Source: Candidatus Gastranaerophilales bacterium (lineage in GTDB: Bacteria; Cyanobacteriota; Vampirovibrionia; Gastranaerophilales; Gastranaerophilaceae). From it: 64,000 nt of DNA. Within the stretch, counting starts at the first letter, position 1. The number at the start of each line of letters is the position of its first letter. The stretch spans positions 294 through 64,293 of the forward strand of contig CALVEO010000005.1 of the NCBI GenBank assembly GCA_944326615.1, given 5' to 3'. A program made the position numbers and the translations under genes. The notes under the pieces were generated by a model. That model was not told where the DNA came from and searched no databases. It saw nothing but the letters and a program-made list of their open reading frames with translations. This document shows, piece after piece, positions 36,008-59,759 of this stretch.

Positions 36008-38347
36008 ATGGCAATGAAAGAGTGGATATTTAATAAATACGACGGGCAGGAAAAATCACTTATAAAAAGACTTTTGCATTCAAGGGGAGTAAAAACGGAC
36101 GAAGAGATTTATGAGTTTTTACACCCGCTTGAGATGAAATTAACTCATCCGAAAGTTTTTACAGATATGGAAAAATGTGTTGAAAGGCTCTCTTATGCAA
36201 TAGATAACGGAGAAAAAATCGTTATCCATGGGGACTTTGATGCTGACGGTGTTACATCTACCTCTCTTTTATACAGAACTTTCAAATTCCTCGGAGCAGA
36301 TGTAAATTATTTTATACCTGACAGAGAAAAAGAAGGGCATGGATTTGATACAAAAGCACTTGTAAAAATTATGACACAGGTCAAGCCAAAAGTTATAATT
36401 TCCTGCGACTGCGGAATTTCTGATGTTGATGCAGTAAATTTTTTAAACAGCTTTAAAATAGATGTAATAATTACAGACCACCATGAAGCGCCTGAAATTT
36501 TACCTAAAGCCTACGGGATAATAAATCCGAAAGCTCCTGACGCTCTGGATGAAAAATTAAGTGCAAAACAGATAGAAAGTTTGACATCCCTTGCCGGCGT
36601 TGGTGTTGCTTTCAAAACAGCACAGGCGCTTTTAGAAAAATACAACAAACTTGAATTTATACCGGAAATTTTGCCTTATGTTGCAGTCGGCACTGTTGCC
36701 GATGTTGTTCCGCTCATCGGTGAAAACAGATACTTTGTAACAAAGGGGTTAGAATTAATCTCTAACGGGAAACATTACGGTCTTTCAAGACTTTTGGAAA
36801 GTGCAGGTTATAAAGGACAAATTACATCAGAACAAATTGCTTTCGGTATTGCCCCCAGAATTAACGCATCAGGAAGATTAGATACTGTCGAAGCAGCCTT
36901 AAAAGTGCTTATTTCAGATAACAGACAGGAAATTGAAATAGCTATTCAGTCGCTTAACGAATTTAACAGGGTGCGTCAGGAACTTTGCCAGAATATTTTT
37001 GCCGAAGCCGATGAAATGGTGAAAAAAGAAGGAAATAAAAATTCCGCAATCGTGCTGTTTAACAAAGAGTGGCACATAGGAATAATCGGAATTGTTGCAT
37101 CCATGCTTGTAGAAAAATATTACAAACCGACATTTTTGATGACTTATTCCGACGAGACAAAACAGTTCAGATGCTCTGCAAGAAGTATCGAAGGTATAAA
37201 TCTTTATGACGCAATTTCCGCTAATTCCGAACTTTTTGACGGCTTTGGCGGGCATGCAATGGCGGCAGGACTTGCATTCAGTGAAGAAAAATCTTCATTT
37301 GATACGGTTAAATCCGCACTTTGTAAAACAGTTAAAGAGATGTCGCAGGGCAAAGAGTTAAAACCGTTTATAAATATAGATCTGGAGCTTATGCCCGATG
37401 ATATTGACATTGAACTTGTCGAACAGCTATCACAGCTGGAACCTTTCGGGGCATCAAATCCAAGCCCTGTTTTTGCATTGAAAAATCTTACAATCAAAGA
37501 AAAACGCCTGATGGGTGAGAATAAAAATCACTTGCGTATAATCTGTCAGTCAGGGAATACAGATTTTACCTGTATCCGCTGGAAGGAAGGCGATATTTCG
37601 CTTGTAAAAGGTGATACTCTGGACATTGCTTTTCATCCGCAAATTAATGAATTCAACGGCATTACATCAGTCCAGCTTATAATCGACGATATTCATTCCG
37701 AACATCTGAAAGAAGAAGAAATTACAAATAAACAAAAAATATACGACCACCGTAAAAAAACTGATATTTTACCACAGGTTAATGATTACGTAAAAAATTC
37801 AAAACAGAATATTCTGATTTTTGCAGAAAGCAAACCCGTTTCAGATAAATTAAAACCATTTTCTGCGCTTTATGCAAGAATAATTAACCGCGATACTCTC
37901 CGTCCATGCGATTCTCTGATGCTTTTTGATTATCCGGCTGACAGAGAGACATTTGACAGAATTTTACATCAGACAAACCCTATTTCAATTCATTTTATGA
38001 ATTATGATATTAAATGCACCGATGAGGAAGAATTTTTAAAGACTGTCTGCGGTATGCTGAAATTTGCCTGCCATAATAACGGAGGAAAAGTTGAACTAAG
38101 GAGATGTGCAAGTTTTCTTGGCAAATCTTACAAAGTATTTGAACTTCTGTTTTCTATCTTTGAAGAAATCGGGTTAATCAAAATAAAAGAACATACAAAA
38201 GATTACTTTGTCATTGATTATAATTCAGGTGTTGATATTACAAAAGTTCTTCATTCCGCAAAGTATGCGCTTTTAACTGATTTAATCGGTGAATGCGAGG
38301 AATTTCAAAAAACATTGCTGGAAGATGATGTATATACACTTGTATAA
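36008..38347 (+). CDS. recJ: ssDNA-specific exonuclease RecJ
   Basis: HGDFDADGVTS, ITDHH, GTVADVVPL, APRINASGR, GGHAMAAG, LEPFGASNP. Confidence 0.97.
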   Translation: MAMKEWIFNKYDGQEKSLIKRLLHSRGVKTDEEIYEFLHPLEMKLTHPKVFTDMEKCVERLSYAIDNGEKIVIHGDFDADGVTSTSLLYRTFKFLGADVNYFIPDREKEGHGFDTKALVKIMTQVKPKVIISCDCGISDVDAVNFLNSFKIDVIITDHHEAPEILPKAYGIINPKAPDALDEKLSAKQIESLTSLAGVGVAFKTAQALLEKYNKLEFIPEILPYVAVGTVADVVPLIGENRYFVTKGLELISNGKHYGLSRLLESAGYKGQITSEQIAFGIAPRINASGRLDTVEAALKVLISDNRQEIEIAIQSLNEFNRVRQELCQNIFAEADEMVKKEGNKNSAIVLFNKEWHIGIIGIVASMLVEKYYKPTFLMTYSDETKQFRCSARSIEGINLYDAISANSELFDGFGGHAMAAGLAFSEEKSSFDTVKSALCKTVKEMSQGKELKPFINIDLELMPDDIDIELVEQLSQLEPFGASNPSPVFALKNLTIKEKRLMGENKNHLRIICQSGNTDFTCIRWKEGDISLVKGDTLDIAFHPQINEFNGITSVQLIIDDIHSEHLKEEEITNKQKIYDHRKKTDILPQVNDYVKNSKQNILIFAESKPVSDKLKPFSALYARIINRDTLRPCDSLMLFDYPADRETFDRILHQTNPISIHFMNYDIKCTDEEEFLKTVCGMLKFACHNNGGKVELRRCASFLGKSYKVFELLFSIFEEIGLIKIKEHTKDYFVIDYNSGVDITKVLHSAKYALLTDLIGECEEFQKTLLEDDVYTLV

Positions 38348-53584: not shown

Positions 53585-54706
53585 TTACCTGATTTGAACA
53601 GGCATAATCAGACAGACGTAATCTTCTTCATTATCAGGTCTGAACATTGTTGCTGATAAAGGAGTATTCAATCCTATTTTTACAATATCAGAATCTATAT
53701 TTTTCAACGCTTCAAGAACAAATTTATAGTTAAAAGCAATTGTCAGTTCTTCTCCTGTGTAATCAATGTCAAAACTTTCTTCTGACTTACCTGAATCAGG
53801 AGTGTCAGCTGTCAATTTCAATGTGTTATGGCTGAATTCCAGTTTTACAATGCTTGTTTTTTCGTTAACCATAATTGATACACGTTCTAATGCTGATGTC
53901 ATCTGTGAAACATTTACAAGAGCTTCTTTCGGACTTTCTTTCGGAATAAGCTGATTGTATTTAGGGAACTGGCCTTCAAGAAGTCTTGATATTGTTGTTG
54001 TTCTTTCTGATTTTATAATAATTTTTGATTTTTCAGTATAGATTTTTACTGAATCTTCATCTATAAAACTGCTCATTTTAATAAATTCGTTCAATGTTTT
54101 TGAAGGAATAATAAGCTGTTTTGCATGATTGTCTTTATTATCAATAGTTTCGCGGACTCTTGCAAGACGGTTTCCGTCAGTTGATGCTATTTCCATAATA
54201 TTTTCAGATATATCGCAGACAATACCTGATAAAAGGTTGCTTGTTTCATAGCTTGCGGCGGCAAAACCTGCCTGTTTTACAGCTTTTACAAACGGTCTTA
54301 TTTCTATTTCAAAACCTTCTTCTTCATTAACGTTAATTGATGAAAATTCCGGCGGAAATTCAGAGGCTGAAATACCGATTATATCAAATTTTGAATTCTG
54401 GCAGGTTATGTTAACACTTGTTTCACCATCTTTCATTTCAAATGTAATTAGTTTATCGCCGAGCTTGGAAACTATTTCATTGAGCGTTTTTGAAGGAAGT
54501 GTTATTTTGCCTTCTTCTTCAACCTGCGCGTCAACAAGTGCTATTACTGTTAAATCCAAATCTGTTGCAACAAGTTTTATAGTACCTTTGTCAATTGTTT
54601 CTATCAAAATATTCATTAATACAGGCTGTAAAGCTTTGACTGATGTAGCTCTTTCTACTATTTTAATCCCGTTATACAAATCTTCTTTTTTAACAACAAA
54701 TTTCAT
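53585..54706 (-). CDS. dnaN: DNA polymerase III beta sliding clamp
   Basis: LVATDLDL, STDGNRLA, RLLEGQFPKYNQLIP, IAFNYKFVLEAL, CLIMPVQI. Confidence 0.97.
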   Translation of the reverse strand: MKFVVKKEDLYNGIKIVERATSVKALQPVLMNILIETIDKGTIKLVATDLDLTVIALVDAQVEEEGKITLPSKTLNEIVSKLGDKLITFEMKDGETSVNITCQNSKFDIIGISASEFPPEFSSINVNEEEGFEIEIRPFVKAVKQAGFAAASYETSNLLSGIVCDISENIMEIASTDGNRLARVRETIDNKDNHAKQLIIPSKTLNEFIKMSSFIDEDSVKIYTEKSKIIIKSERTTTISRLLEGQFPKYNQLIPKESPKEALVNVSQMTSALERVSIMVNEKTSIVKLEFSHNTLKLTADTPDSGKSEESFDIDYTGEELTIAFNYKFVLEALKNIDSDIVKIGLNTPLSATMFRPDNEEDYVCLIMPVQIR

Positions 54707-54729
54707 ATTTTTTACTCCCCGTTAATTTT

Positions 54730-55064
54730 ATCGTATAATAACTTTATTATATTCGTTCAAAATTTAAATAAAAGAATATAATACAAAAACTTTACTTTTT
54801 AGAGTTTTAAACAAAAAACAAATTATTAATTATTATATTAATAAAATATATAAATTTAATAATAATAATAAGCTCTTATTATTTGTAGAAAAGTGGTTGA
54901 AAGTATTGTTATTATTAATTTTTTAGTTGTATAAAACTTGGTAGAAAACTATATAATAATAATAGTATTTTTGTAGAAAACATAAAAAACTAAAAAATCC
55001 TGTAGAAAACTCATGAATTTTCTACTATTTTCTCCTACTTTTTCTACTAAAAAACGTAAATTTT
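54730..55064. promoter_or_regulatory. Candidate replication origin (oriC) and dnaN promoter region
   Basis: TGTAGAAAA at 54884, 54972, 55001; TGTATAAAA at 54928; GGTAGAAAA at 54940; inverted TTTTCTACT at 55018 and 55040; almost pure A/T tract at 54810-54883. Confidence 0.65.
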
Positions 55065-55901
55065 TTACAATTGCCCGCAGATTACTCTCTCAATTCCTGC
55101 AAGATCTTTTATAATTTCAATATTCTTATAACCTTTTTCACACATTATGTTTTTTACATCTACAGCTTGCCCCATGCCGAGTTCAAATATTAAATATCCA
55201 GATTTATTCAATATATCAACAGAGTTTTCGGTTATTTTATTGTAGAATTCCAAACCTTTTTCATCCTTTGTAAACAGAGCAATCTGCGGATCATATTTTA
55301 CTTCCGGCTGTAAATTTTCTTTCATTAAATCGGGAATATAAGGCGGGTTTGAAATAATAATATCAAAGGTTTCACCGGGTTTTACATTAGAAAAAATGTC
55401 GGATTTTCTAAAAATTGCCTTATTGAAAAGGTTTAGCTTAGAAGCATTATCAAGAGCAGTATTCAAAGCGTCTGTTGAAATATCAAGCCCGATAATCCGG
55501 CAGTCTGTAAATTTTGCAATCATACAGGCAATACAACCAGAGCCTGTACCGACATCAAGAGCTGTTTTTAGGTTGTTATCGTTAATAATTTTTATAGCTT
55601 TTCTCACTAATATTTCTGTTTCATCGCGCGGAATTAAAACTGAAGGATTAACTATAAATTTTTCTCCCATAAAATCTGCATATCCAATAATATGTTGAAT
55701 TGGTCTGCGTGTTTTTGCGCGTATTTCTGCTTTTTCTTTTACTAAATCCAGTTTTTGAGGTGATAATTTATTTCCGAGTATAATATCTTTTGTCCCGTAG
55801 TCTGCAAAGCTTTCAAGAAGCAGTTTTACCTCAATATTTGCTTCATTTTGTTCTATGCCGCTGTCTGTTAATATTTTTAAAATATCTTGTATTGTTGTCA
55901 T
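55065..55901 (-). CDS. prmC: Release factor glutamine methyltransferase
   Basis: RPIQHIIG, VLIPRDETE, DVGTGSGCIA, ISNPPYI. Confidence 0.96.
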   Translation of the reverse strand: MTTIQDILKILTDSGIEQNEANIEVKLLLESFADYGTKDIILGNKLSPQKLDLVKEKAEIRAKTRRPIQHIIGYADFMGEKFIVNPSVLIPRDETEILVRKAIKIINDNNLKTALDVGTGSGCIACMIAKFTDCRIIGLDISTDALNTALDNASKLNLFNKAIFRKSDIFSNVKPGETFDIIISNPPYIPDLMKENLQPEVKYDPQIALFTKDEKGLEFYNKITENSVDILNKSGYLIFELGMGQAVDVKNIMCEKGYKNIEIIKDLAGIERVICGQL

Positions 55902-55922
55902 ATTATTTATTTCCCTGTCAGG

Positions 55923-56432
55923 TTAATCTGAATTTGAAAAAGGATCATTTGCTTTTGAGTAAGTTTTTAGAATTTTATCAATTTCATCACGCGCCTCTAA
56001 CTTTGATGACAATTCTTTTTTTTCTAAATTGTATTTTTTGCACAGGCGTTCGTAATAGTAAAGCTGTTTTTTTGTAGGCTGTTCTTTAGACATTTTAAGT
56101 TCTTTTAAAAATTCTCTTTTTTGTTTTTCGTAAGCCTTTTGAGCTTCAATTAAAGGTGCCTGTTTTTTCTTATAATCGTAATATTTTTTGCATTCATTCA
56201 GGAATAATATAGTTTCATTTCTGAATTGTTCATCATTAATGTAGTTTTCTAAAAATTCAAAATGCGGATTATTTATTTCAAAATAGTAATTTTCATCCTC
56301 AATAAATTTATCAAAAATATTGTTTACATCCATGTCAGGAGATTTTTTTACCAGAGAGCGCAAAAAATTACACAGGGCTGATTTCTGGTTTTTGGTCATG
56401 TTTTGATAAATTTGATTTTTAATCTGATACAT
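55923..56432 (-). CDS. Hypothetical protein
   Basis: 169-aa ORF co-directional with prmC; PTKKQLYY motif. Confidence 0.7.
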   Translation of the reverse strand: MYQIKNQIYQNMTKNQKSALCNFLRSLVKKSPDMDVNNIFDKFIEDENYYFEINNPHFEFLENYINDEQFRNETILFLNECKKYYDYKKKQAPLIEAQKAYEKQKREFLKELKMSKEQPTKKQLYYYERLCKKYNLEKKELSSKLEARDEIDKILKTYSKANDPFSNSD

Positions 56433-56478
56433 AAAATAATTTTATAAAAAAAATTATTATCAAACAAGTTAATTCAAA

Positions 56479-57177
56479 TTACATTTTAGTATCAAATTTT
56501 TTCATTTGAGAAGGCACCTGTTTTGCTTTGTCAACATATTTCTGGTTTCGTCTGACAACAGAAGGGTTATTAATATCTTTCGGGCGGCGTATAAGAGTGT
56601 AGACTTGTCCGCCGGTTAATTTTTTACCTGTAAGGCCTTTTTCTTCTATGCGGAATTTTAAATATGCTTCGGAATATTTTATTTGTTTTTCGCGCGGCAG
56701 TTTAGTGTATTGTTCATATGTGCATTTTTTATCAACATTAATACTGTCAAAACTCATTTTATCCATTTGGATTAAGCCTGTATATTTTCCGCTGCTGCTT
56801 TTTAACTGCGGATCAAAATGAGATTCCCTGTATATGATTGCCGCAAGATCATCAGGGCGGCAATTTATCCTTTTCGCTGTTTTTGTTATTTCATCAAAAA
56901 ATTTCAAAGATATATTCGGGTCAATTTTTATTTTATTCTGATCGACTTCTGCTTCTTTTTCCATTACAAGCTTCCAGTCTTTATGCAGTTTTTTAGCTTC
57001 AGTAGAAACATTTGCAGATGAAGAATTTGTTTTAACTTTTTTAGAATTATTCCAGACGCTGTTTTTCATCCATTCGGGGTTGTTAATCTGTTTCAAATTA
57101 TTCAGTAACATTTTGGAATAATCAGTTTGCGGGGCTTTCATCGGCGGCCGCCAGTTGATATTTTTTTCATCACTCAT
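56479..57177 (-). CDS. Lytic transglycosylase (SLT)-like domain protein without a signal peptide
   Basis: DLAAIIYRESHFDP...YTGLIQM, the lysozyme-fold E-S and GLxQ motifs. Confidence 0.65.
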   Translation of the reverse strand: MSDEKNINWRPPMKAPQTDYSKMLLNNLKQINNPEWMKNSVWNNSKKVKTNSSSANVSTEAKKLHKDWKLVMEKEAEVDQNKIKIDPNISLKFFDEITKTAKRINCRPDDLAAIIYRESHFDPQLKSSSGKYTGLIQMDKMSFDSINVDKKCTYEQYTKLPREKQIKYSEAYLKFRIEEKGLTGKKLTGGQVYTLIRRPKDINNPSVVRRNQKYVDKAKQVPSQMKKFDTKM

Positions 57178-57247
57178 ACAATTAACCTTTCATACGTATG
57201 ATATTACGGATAAAAAGCTGGAAATCTTCAGTAAATATTAAAATTTG

Positions 57248-58156
57248 TTACAATTTAATATTTTTCCCTAATTCAAGAACAGTATTAATATCTTGTTCCG
57301 GAGATTTTCCGGCAGTCGTGAGATAATTTCCTGTCATAATACCTTCAATACATGTTTTGAGAGCTTTTTTCTGGTTATCTTCCGATAATCGCATTCTTCC
57401 GCCGCAAAGCCGCAGGATTGAATTAGGATTTGCTATTTTGAAAATTGCAAGAGTTCTTAATATATTTTCTTCATCTATTTTGTCGTAATAATTTTCAAAA
57501 GGCGTTTCAACAATTGGCATCAAAATATTTATCGGGATTGAATCGGGCTGAATATCTCTGAGTTCAAGCGCCATTTCAATTCTCTGTTCAACTGTTTCGC
57601 CCATGCCAAGTATAACTCCGCAGCATAATTCCATTCCGTATTTTTTTACAAGCCTGCAGGTGTTAAATCTGTCGTTCCAGCTATGTGTTGTACAAATTTC
57701 AGGGTAATACGATTTTGATGTGTTAATATTGTGATGAAATCTTTTTAAGCCTCTTTCGGCAAGCTTTTTTGCCTGTTGTTCATTTAAAATACCGATTGAA
57801 GCGCAGCTTTTAAGTCCTTTTATTTTGTTTACTTCATCAATCATTTCAAGAATTTTATCGAAATCGCTTTCATCCGGAGTTTTGCCGGATGTTACTATTG
57901 CAAACCTTGACGCTTTATGTGATTTTGCTTCAAGTGCGGATGTTCTGACTTTTTCAATATCAACAAGCGGATATGATTCTATATGTGTTCTGTAATACGA
58001 ACTCTGGGCGCAATATTTACAGTTCTGCGAGCATTTTCCGCTGCGTGCGTTTATAAGAGAGCAAAATTCCACATCATTTTTTATGAATTCCGATGAAATT
58101 TTCAAAAGTTTATCAAGTTCCAGATTATATAATCTTAAAAGTCCGGCTTTATCCAT
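57248..58156 (-). CDS. bioB: Biotin synthase
   Basis: INARSGKCSQNCKYCAQS, HHNINTS, CCGVILGMGET, SIPINIL, GNYLTT. Confidence 0.95.
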   Translation of the reverse strand: MDKAGLLRLYNLELDKLLKISSEFIKNDVEFCSLINARSGKCSQNCKYCAQSSYYRTHIESYPLVDIEKVRTSALEAKSHKASRFAIVTSGKTPDESDFDKILEMIDEVNKIKGLKSCASIGILNEQQAKKLAERGLKRFHHNINTSKSYYPEICTTHSWNDRFNTCRLVKKYGMELCCGVILGMGETVEQRIEMALELRDIQPDSIPINILMPIVETPFENYYDKIDEENILRTLAIFKIANPNSILRLCGGRMRLSEDNQKKALKTCIEGIMTGNYLTTAGKSPEQDINTVLELGKNIKL

Positions 58157-58237
58157 AAATTCTCCAAAGTTAATAATATAACCTTAATTGACTAAAGTCA
58201 AATCCTATGTTAAAATTGGCTCACAAAGGAGTATGCG

Positions 58238-58858
58238 ATGTTTTGTCCGAATTGCGGAAAACAGGTTAAAAATAAAGATAATTTTTGCAGATACTGCGGA
58301 GCTGATTTGAGAGCAGAAGAAGGGAATAAACAACAAAAATTTTCTGATGAGGAATATGTTATACATAATTATAATGAGAATCAAAAGCAGTATAAACTTC
58401 CCCCGGAAAACAGCGAGGAACTTGTTTTGTACGATGTGAAAAAACACTGGATGTCTCTTTTTTGGCCTGTATTTTTGACTCCTGTATTTTTTATATACTT
58501 CTGGTTTATTTTTTTGAATACGCACAGTATTTTTAGCTGGATAATTGTGATGCTGATTTTAATTCCGATTATTTATCCTATTCTGCGTTATAATTCTGAC
58601 AAAATTATAATAACAACAAAATTTGTTCATATAAAAATAGGTGTATTAAATGCTGTAGAAATAGATGTTCCAATTTCAAAAGCCGATATGCTTGATTTAT
58701 CTCAATCAACAATGGGTAAAATATTGAATTACGGAACACTTACTTTTAACCAGAATTCTGAAAGATTTGATTACAGTTATATTAAAGATCCCCAAGATTT
58801 AGAATATATTATGGAAAATCCTGCAAGATTTGTTTGTGAATCGCTTGGAGAAGAATAG
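58238..58858 (+). CDS. Zinc-ribbon + TM + bacterial PH-domain membrane protein
   Basis: CPNCG...FCRYCG; two TM helices; QSTMGKILNYGTL; RBS AAGGAG. Confidence 0.8.
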   Translation: MFCPNCGKQVKNKDNFCRYCGADLRAEEGNKQQKFSDEEYVIHNYNENQKQYKLPPENSEELVLYDVKKHWMSLFWPVFLTPVFFIYFWFIFLNTHSIFSWIIVMLILIPIIYPILRYNSDKIIITTKFVHIKIGVLNAVEIDVPISKADMLDLSQSTMGKILNYGTLTFNQNSERFDYSYIKDPQDLEYIMENPARFVCESLGEE

Positions 58859-58898
58859 CAGGTTTATAGCATAATCATTTATATAATTTATTTGTGTT

Positions 58899-59759
58899 CT
58901 ATGTTTTATTTATAGAAAAATAGACTTCTTTAAGACGTTTTTTGCTTATGTGTGTGTAAAGCTGGGTTGTTGACACATTGCTGTGGCCCAAAAGTTCCTG
59001 TACAACTCTTAAATCGGCTCCGTTTTCAAGAAGGTGTGTGGCAAATGTATGTCTTAAAGTGTGCGGTGATATTGATTTATGAAGTTTTTTGCCCTGTTCG
59101 TGAATAAATGTATAGACTTCCTGACGGGTAACATGTTTGCCATGTTCGTTAATCAAAAGGAATTTTGATTGAATATTATATTTTTGCATATTGTAATCAC
59201 GCTCCGGCAGGAATTCTTTTATTGCTTTAATTGCTTTCTTCCCCATGGGAACAATTCTGTCTTTTGAACCTTTTCCCGTACATTCAAGAAATTTAGAGTT
59301 AAGGTCGTAATCATTTGTTTTCAGGTTTACAAGTTCTGATACACGCAAGCCGCATCCGTACAAAAGTTCAGCTATTACTCTTTGCAGATTAGTCAAATTT
59401 TGGTTTAAAAGAATGTTAACTTCTTCAATAGTCATAACTTTCGGGAGTTTTTGCGGGATTTTAGGCTGTTCAAGTGTAATAGCAGGATTGTCTTTGATTA
59501 TGCCGTTTGAGTTTGCCCATTTAAAGAAACCGCGCAGAGAGGCAGTTTTTCTCATAATGCTTGTTGGTGAATAGTGTTTTTCATGAAGATTTCTAATATA
59601 TGAATTTATTCCGGTTCTTTGTATTTTGTCAATATCTGTATCTGAACAAAAGTCGAAAAATGCATTCAAATCTGTTCTGTAGGCGTCCAGCGTATTTTCT
59701 GCAAGACCTTTTTCTATTTCCAGAAATTCCAGATATTCGGATAAAATTTGTGTATTCAT
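58899..59759 (-). CDS. xerD: Tyrosine recombinase XerD
   Basis: EKGLAENTLDAYRTDL, ELLYGCGLRVSEL, GKGSKDRIVP, SPHTLRHTFATHLLENGADLRVVQELLGH. Confidence 0.88.
   Translation of the reverse strand: MNTQILSEYLEFLEIEKGLAENTLDAYRTDLNAFFDFCSDTDIDKIQRTGINSYIRNLHEKHYSPTSIMRKTASLRGFFKWANSNGIIKDNPAITLEQPKIPQKLPKVMTIEEVNILLNQNLTNLQRVIAELLYGCGLRVSELVNLKTNDYDLNSKFLECTGKGSKDRIVPMGKKAIKAIKEFLPERDYNMQKYNIQSKFLLINEHGKHVTRQEVYTFIHEQGKKLHKSISPHTLRHTFATHLLENGADLRVVQELLGHSNVSTTQLYTHISKKRLKEVYFSINKT

Follow-up and report, generated by a model that had tools for sequence, protein, structure and literature searches.

A variant DnaA-box array upstream of dnaN as the probable chromosomal origin of a gut Gastranaerophilales bacterium

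The 358-bp gap between dnaN and prmC (54707–55064) is, with a probability that we put at roughly 85% on the strength of sequence comparisons, the chromosomal oriC of this bacterium, an origin of the standard DnaA type that uses a variant DnaA box. The evidence consists of the anatomy of a box array in this gap, its uniqueness in the genome, its conservation among relatives, its place on the replication axis as determined in a complete relative, and a covariation between one box base and one residue of DnaA. The new part is the T at position 6 of the box together with a matching change in the recognition helix of DnaA; the architecture itself is ordinary. To our knowledge, nearly all bacteria have a C at this position, which is among the most invariant bases of their origins. 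In the literature that we searched, we found no report of TTTTCTACA as a DnaA box and none of a melainabacterial origin.

The window (the whole stretch of DNA analysed, 64 kb) belongs to a metagenome-assembled genome (MAG) of an uncultured gut Gastranaerophilales (Melainabacteria/Vampirovibrionia, the non-photosynthetic sister class of cyanobacteria), which comprises 1.96 Mb in 78 contigs with 34.6% GC. An initial annotation, made from the sequence of the window, had guessed at a cyanobacterial affinity, and the relatives that we found through DnaN, Candidatus Gastranaerophilales and Melainabacteria from human and animal guts, agree with that guess. It had also proposed an origin in this gap, a proposal now supported by conservation of the array, by the GC skew of the complete genome MEL.A1 and by an altered DnaA domain IV. 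As it had remarked, no dnaA gene adjoins the array: dnaA is on another contig (C16, 33400–34616), unlinked from dnaN, and is truncated at the contig end in this genome (G000), so that the N terminus is missing and 354 aa (domains III–IV) are encoded, compared with ~467 aa in relatives. For comparisons at the scale of the chromosome we used two complete relatives, MEL.A1 (CP017245.1; 1.87 Mb, same genus, DnaN 90% identical) and OZ006972.1 (2.24 Mb, DnaN 76% identical).

The gap is 83% A+T and contains seven or eight boxes within 165–185 bp, five oriented one way and three the other (Table 1), all of which we located by reading the sequence directly. The word TTTTCTACA on the minus strand appears as TGTAGAAAA on the plus strand, the extended consensus of the box is GTTTTCTACA(A), and the three minus-strand copies, two one-mismatch variants and two plus-strand copies reported by the initial annotation are all in place. 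Every box of the array has T at position 6, and the array box differs at two positions from TTATCCACA and at one from the cyanobacterial TTTTCCACA. Neither of these two words occurs in the gap, which confirms the absence of the canonical box that had been claimed, and GATC is also missing. Several DnaA boxes of a variant sequence are clustered in non-coding DNA beside an indicator gene, dnaN, in a genome that has a dnaA gene on contig C16. By position (upstream of dnaN, with dnaA unlinked) this is an origin of the cyanobacterial type, and by box sequence, with no TTTTCCACA in the gap, it is not. The description of the boxes as phased stands in part: the two successive 44-bp steps (54884 to 54928 to 54972) are real and recur as 43–44 bp in relatives, but the word overstates the regularity, because 44 bp is one spacing among several, the others being 12, 22, 29 and 32 bp. 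In the genus consensus, the pair formed by boxes 5 and 6 is a perfect palindrome, CTGTAGAAAACTCATGAGTTTTCTACAG. A phased array of CATG was considered as well and rejected, the gap containing a single CATG. Between boxes 1 and 2 lies a block, TTGAAAGTAT, that matches no box and whose conservation across the genus equals that of the boxes; an accessory protein may bind there, or the block may act as a promoter element.

Table 1. Features of the dnaN–prmC region, in coordinates of the window.
Feature	Position	Strand	Basis or remark
dnaN (DNA polymerase III beta clamp, 373 aa)	53585–54706	−	PF00712, PF02767, PF02768, E 1e-23 to 5e-31
dnaN leader and probable promoter region, A/T-rich	54707–54795	−	Assigned as intergenic DNA adjoining the dnaN start
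Candidate DNA-unwinding element	54796–54871		Least stable 40-bp and 75-bp DNA of the 64-kb window
Conserved A/T block ATTATTAATTATTATATTAAT	~54822–54842		90–100% conserved in 21 genus-level origins
DnaA-trio-like run (TAA)5, 3′-AAT-5′ units	54857–54871	+	Direct reading; 90–100% conserved
12-bp spacer GCTCTTATTATT	54872–54883		From trios to box 1; trio-proximal GCTC conserved
Box 1, TTTTCTACA	54884–54892	−	Proximal to unwinding element, R1-type position; invariant in 21 aligned origins
Conserved 10-bp block TTGAAAGTAT	54899–54908		Between boxes 1 and 2; footprint alignment
Box 2, TTTTATACA (plus strand TGTATAAAA), one mismatch	54928–54936	−	Genus consensus is a perfect box
Box 3, TTTTCTACC (plus strand GGTAGAAAA), one mismatch at position 9	54940–54948	−	3 bp from box 2
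Box 4, TTTTCTACA	54972–54980	−	Sequence and footprint alignment
Box 5, TTTTCTACA	55001–55009	−	Left half of head-to-head pair around CATG (55012)
Box 6, TTTTCTACT, inverted orientation	55018–55026	+	Right half of head-to-head pair
Box 7, degenerate, TTTTCTCCTAC	55028–55038	+	Genus consensus here is an intact TTTTCTACA
Box 8, TTTTCTACT	55040–55048	+	Sequence and footprint alignment
Possible additional copy, TTTTTTACA	55061–55069		
prmC (release-factor glutamine methyltransferase)	55065–55901	−	NCBIfam TIGR03534, 240 bits against a cut-off of 199

The side of the array nearer to dnaN has the layout of an unwinding module. Its plus strand reads, in order, the A/T block, (TAA)5, a 12-bp spacer that starts with GCTC, and TGTAGAAAA. 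The unstable A/T-rich element at 54796–54871 ranks as the fifth least stable 75-mer of the whole 1.96-Mb genome, and 54810–54883, earlier described as an almost pure A/T tract with (TAA)n triplets, is indeed 93% A+T; the suggestion that these triplets are DnaA-trios fits in both spacing and polarity. In the basal unwinding system (BUS), a box is separated by 0–16 bp (with a peak at 10–13 bp) from three or more trios whose central base is adenine (PMC8287927), and (TAA)5-N12-TGTAGAAAA follows this rule, with its box no more than 16 bp from at least three central-A trios in the fixed polarity. Across the genus, the consensus of the trio run is TAA TAG TAA TAA TAA. We derived the expected polarity from the arrangement of the unwinding element and box R1 (DUE-R1) in E. 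coli, which served as the polarity reference, and from the description of H. pylori, and then checked it in the relative G185. There the sequence reads TTATCTACA-N13-CTA CTA CTA, which places canonical 3′-GAT-5′ trios on the complementary strand; because our module has the same polarity as this arrangement, the polarity of its trios is confirmed within the class.

We infer DnaA binding and unwinding at the trios. DnaA, encoded elsewhere, would bind the seven or eight variant boxes GTTTTCTACA through its C-terminal helix-turn-helix domain, with the T at box position 6 being read by a re-specified recognition helix. An oligomer of ATP-DnaA would then grow from the box at 54884 over the 12-bp spacer onto the (TAA)5 of the plus strand, after which the adjoining 93% A/T block would be melted and the helicase loaded there.

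A cluster of three or more boxes occurs nowhere else in the genome. The word TTTTCTACW has eight sites in the window, five of them in the gap, and shuffled sequences gave 2.84 ± 1.65 sites, with none of 100 shuffles reaching eight. Genome-wide (1.96 Mb) there are 158 copies of the 8-mer core, and six core copies within 165 bp have a Poisson probability of ~6e-15, or ~1e-8 after multiplication by the genome length. Our search for a second cluster in the same genome found none, with at most two copies per 400 bp elsewhere. Pairs of boxes outside the gap numbered 3–4, compared with ~5 expected by chance, and at that level the motif is unlike the operator of a regulon. The chromosome of MEL.A1 likewise has a sole cluster, with eight boxes in 190 bp (1,198,542–1,198,727) and at most two per 400 bp elsewhere. 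In both complete relatives TTTTCTACW is scarcer than the same word reversed without complementing (136 versus 283 copies in MEL.A1 and 163 versus 245 in OZ006972.1), and this scarcity may be due to selection against stray sites of initiator binding or to composition alone.

The array has been kept with dnaN. In each of the 17 same-genus genomes whose upstream sequence is long enough, it stands at near-identical distances from dnaN: five boxes lie at about −184, −227, −239, −271 and −300, and the inverted ones, two or three in number, lie near −316, −338 and −360. At least three boxes lie upstream of dnaN in 49 of the 57 named relatives. Outside the family, five genomes whose DnaN is 46–49% identical to ours each have six copies in a different arrangement, family f9 has a degenerate TGTA[GCT]AAAA array upstream of dnaN, and the array is present in other orders of the class too, so the conservation that had been proposed as a check extends well beyond close relatives. 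What is constrained emerges from a footprint alignment of 21 origins whose DnaN identity is 75–100%: the boxes are invariant and the spacers between them variable, and the other invariant columns are the trio run with GCTC, the A/T block, TTGAAAGTAT and the palindrome CTGTAGAAAACTCATGAGTTTTCTACAG.

The genes on either side differ in how far they belong with the array. Transcription of dnaN runs away from the boxes, and in its leader (54707–54795) promoter-like consensus matches are not above those in shuffled sequences. On the other side, prmC is a flanking gene outside the origin whose stop lies at the edge of the gap, and MEL.A1 differs on that flank. There, the gene at the edge of the array is an ORF of ~780 aa (1,198,761–1,201,101) whose counterpart in our genome is at 36008–38347 of the window on the plus strand (779–780 aa). 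This displacement places an inversion breakpoint precisely at the edge of the origin that faces prmC, and the box array has been kept with dnaN across it. The idea that prmC encodes a DNA methyltransferase acting at the origin was rejected, since the product is a release-factor methyltransferase and the flank differs in MEL.A1.

Several relatives depart from this pattern. At L062 (MGBC145961) the whole array appears inverted relative to dnaN, with three boxes proximal to dnaN and five inverted ones distal, which would place the unwinding element on the far side. No box cluster was found upstream of dnaN at L284 (G054), L287 (G128), L088, L092 and L094–L098 (Gastranaerophilales); in these cluster-less Gastranaerophilales the origin has moved or another word is used. 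In G054, rpmA lies upstream of dnaN and DnaA reads Q-H-P at 433–435, and a scan of this genome (Gln433) for TTWTCWACA gave no cluster among the 100 of 356 matches listed. In assemblies of relatives, dnaN is 70–570 bp from a contig end in 8 of 29 cases (L005, L010, L013, L016, L017, L015, L019 and L024), and in five of these eight the break falls inside the A/T-rich part of the origin; the origin is a place where the assemblies of these MAGs break repeatedly.

In all order-level relatives that we examined, dnaA and dnaN are unlinked. Elsewhere in the class the two genes are adjacent, with TTTTCTACA boxes in the spacer between them, in six genomes of family f40 (G204, G189, G208, G212, G184 and G194) and two of family f44 (G174 and G169), which indicates that dnaA and dnaN became unlinked within the class, after the change of box. 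Four further genomes, G159, G164 and G179 (genus g81, family f40) and G199 (89–91% complete), gave no match to the DnaA C-terminal or the DnaN N-terminal domain, and their sister genera do match; this absence in g81 and G199 could mean that the genes are truly lost, that they have diverged strongly or that our first-look filter failed.

We next turn to the replication axis. Our assembly of 78 contigs gives local skew only, and the shift point of the GC skew therefore comes from MEL.A1. Cumulative skew over its whole chromosome forms a clean V that peaks at 289,418 and reaches its global minimum at 1,167,991; a second minimum, almost as deep, follows at ~1,205,000, 6 kb from the cluster. The cluster falls between both minima, 30 kb (1.6%) from the global one, in a skew valley that resolves the origin to ~40–90 kb. 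Thus, in the cumulative skew that had been suggested as a check, the minimum adjoins the homologous cluster of a complete genome of the same genus. Of the two candidate marker genes in MEL.A1, dnaN is at 1,198 kb and dnaA at 544 kb, in the middle of a replichore. Skew calculated from coding sequences is weak, with a coarse minimum at 1.26 Mb. In OZ006972.1, skew sampled over the first 1.08 Mb stays below zero between 1 and 860 kb and above zero between 894 and 1,082 kb, and its cluster is at ~947 kb.

Rearrangements point to the same place. When our genome was compared with MEL.A1, 48 of 115 midpoints of rearrangement junctions (modulo half the chromosome length, L/2) fell at 197–295 kb, where ~12 were expected, and the cluster maps to 264.9 kb on this scale, in the modal bin. 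Junction midpoints centred on the cluster imply inversions that are symmetric about an axis through the locus, as is the case for an origin–terminus axis. Within the window, skew is lowest at 54–58 kb, and skew at the kilobase scale tracks gene orientation. The genes at 55065–59759 (~5 kb) lie on the minus strand and would meet a rightward fork head-on, and the strand of the genes switches at 59.8 kb. We rejected an origin at this switch, where the gap is 110 bp, contains no box cluster and has a local skew that follows gene orientation.

The symmetry of the inversion breakpoints about the locus, and the lack of any other box cluster in our genome or MEL.A1, bear on the alternative that survives best, namely that the array is a regulatory or titration site for DnaA (an operator of dnaN or a datA-like sink) and that the real origin is elsewhere in the skew valley. 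DnaA is known to act as a transcription factor at sites of this kind, and the array is directly upstream of dnaN; the distance of the global skew minimum in MEL.A1 and the strand switch 5 kb to the right of the locus would also be in keeping with an origin elsewhere. However, an operator needs neither trios, nor spacer, nor A/T block, and here all three are conserved with the polarity of an unwinding site, such that we regard a purely regulatory role for the array as unlikely.

We aligned DnaA to the E. coli, B. subtilis, Aquifex and M. tuberculosis structures. The protein of our genome keeps R399, H434 and T435 and has E, K and Y at the positions of E. coli P423, D433 and H439, and domain IV is thus altered at base-contacting positions, as the initial annotation had anticipated. 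That annotation had combined a C-to-T box with altered DnaA specificity as a feature of one lineage; the change is real but is class-wide rather than confined to the lineage. Tyrosine at 439 also occurs in cyanobacteria and M. tuberculosis, whereas P423E is confined to our genus. We take the base contacts second-hand from published accounts, in which these six residues are base-specific (PMC7561715), D433 is highly conserved in all bacterial classes and contacts base pair 7 (PMC8235120), and the helix at 434–451 reads the TnCACA part of the box (PMC5742627). Because the published contact of D433 is with position 7, not 6, the assignment of this residue to the variant base is indirect.

Across the phylum, box base 6 and residue 433 vary together. 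In the other classes, Asp433 was present in all 30 DnaAs sampled, and the sequence upstream of dnaN has 3–16 CAC-type boxes (TTTTCCAC, TTATCCAC, TTGTCCAC) and essentially none of the TAC type. In the Gastranaerophilales, 29 of 30 DnaAs have Lys433 and the boxes upstream of dnaN are of the TAC type (TTTTCTACA). Lys433 is also found in Vampirovibrionia families f39, f40, f41 and f44, which have 2–8 TAC-type boxes and almost none of the CAC type; family f46, whose DnaA was outside the sample, has six TAC-type boxes and is likewise almost devoid of CAC-type ones. A third combination occurs in G171 (family f45), with Gln433 and five TTATCAACA boxes followed by trios. At this locus (L374), the TTATCAACA boxes and the ATG/ATT trios are 330–470 bp upstream of dnaN, and in another f45 genome, G210, TTATCAACC occurs three times. 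Some genomes have the residue and no cluster at dnaN (Lys433 in family f42 and in G128, Gln433 in G054). The covariation thus has three states, D/C, K/T and Q/A, as counted without correction for phylogeny and with the Q/A state represented by one or two genomes.

This three-state covariation is the strongest argument that it is DnaA that would read the boxes, and it weighs against the reading in which the 9-mers are bound by another protein, a lineage-specific initiator or a transcription factor, and resemble DnaA boxes by coincidence. Coincidence would also have to account for a box one base away from the cyanobacterial DnaA box at the same genomic position, and a transcription factor for the lack of regulon-like pairs above chance. 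Some cyanobacteria do replicate independently of DnaA (PMC7198777), but the V shape of the skew speaks for one fixed origin, a pattern tied in cyanobacteria to dependence on DnaA. A link to autoregulation of dnaA is missing: upstream of MEL.A1 dnaA, in a region that is coding, we found no perfect box and one-mismatch matches at the level of chance, an absence of boxes that would suit a protein other than DnaA. Taken together, we consider binding by such a protein quite improbable. The remaining alternative, that the repeats are a chance feature of low-complexity intergenic DNA without sequence-specific function, draws on the A/T-richness of both gap and motif and is effectively refuted by conservation, given the genome-wide Poisson probability, boxes that stay invariant while spacers vary, and an array that persists across orders and in genomes with as little as 46% DnaN identity.

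With DnaA as the probable reader of the boxes, lysine in place of Asp433 is the leading candidate for what would allow T at position 6 to be read, a causal role that we infer from the covariation. A stronger proposal is that residue 433 alone determines which base is accepted at position 6 of the box and has been re-specified at least twice in one phylum, from Asp/C (TTTTCCACA or TTATCCACA) to Lys/T (TTTTCTACA) at the base of the Vampirovibrionia and to Gln/A (TTATCAACA) in one family; we hold this proposal tentatively, at slightly worse than even odds. If true, it would mean that initiator and origin have evolved together by a simple and portable code of one residue for one base, and this code could serve to build orthogonal pairs of DnaA and oriC. 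In any case, the replacement of D433 turns the specificity of DnaA into a directly testable hypothesis about one residue, and the class-wide switch is a natural experiment in the co-evolution of initiator and origin in which viability was kept.

There are also practical consequences for annotation. Tools for origin prediction rely on TTATCCACA or on short lists of species-specific boxes; the example boxes of Ori-Finder 2022 are TTATCCACA, TTTTCCACA and the Thermotoga 12-mer only. For genomes and MAGs of Melainabacteria/Vampirovibrionia, TTTTCTACA would be the correct box for annotating origins, and the same box would serve estimates of growth rate (peak-to-trough) in gut metagenomes.

Among the closest known systems are the cyanobacterial origins, including that of Synechococcus elongatus PCC 7942, which was verified experimentally beside dnaN (PMC7198777). 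They are in the same phylum and share with our locus the position upstream of dnaN, the unlinked dnaA, a cluster of TTTT-type boxes (TTTTCCACA in cyanobacteria) and a V-shaped skew with its shift point at dnaN. They differ in that our box has T rather than C at position 6 and our DnaA Lys rather than Asp433, and our host, unlike S. elongatus, is non-photosynthetic and gut-associated, with 34.6% GC. The unwinding module resembles the BUS of Bacillus subtilis incC (DnaA-boxes 6/7, GC spacer, DnaA-trios, A/T block) in the order of its elements and their strand polarity, and in having a short spacer (12 bp in our case) with a GC-containing tetramer and at least three central-A trios. In contrast to that system, our trios are mostly 3′-AAT-5′ rather than 3′-GAT-5′, the GC tetramer is proximal to the trios, box 1 has no obvious second box fused to it, and the site is not between dnaA and dnaN. 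Thermotoga maritima (12-mer box AAACCTACCACC) offers a precedent for a lineage whose divergent box is accompanied by substitutions in domain IV of DnaA, but the change in our lineage is minimal, involving one base of a 9-mer and few residues, with the box unextended and most base-contact residues kept. Helicobacter pylori (box TCATTCACA) also has a lineage-specific 9-mer with a C-to-T change in the core and BUS-type trios by the proximal box; its change, however, is at the naturally variable position 5 with D433 retained, whereas ours affects the near-invariant position 6, and D433 has been replaced.
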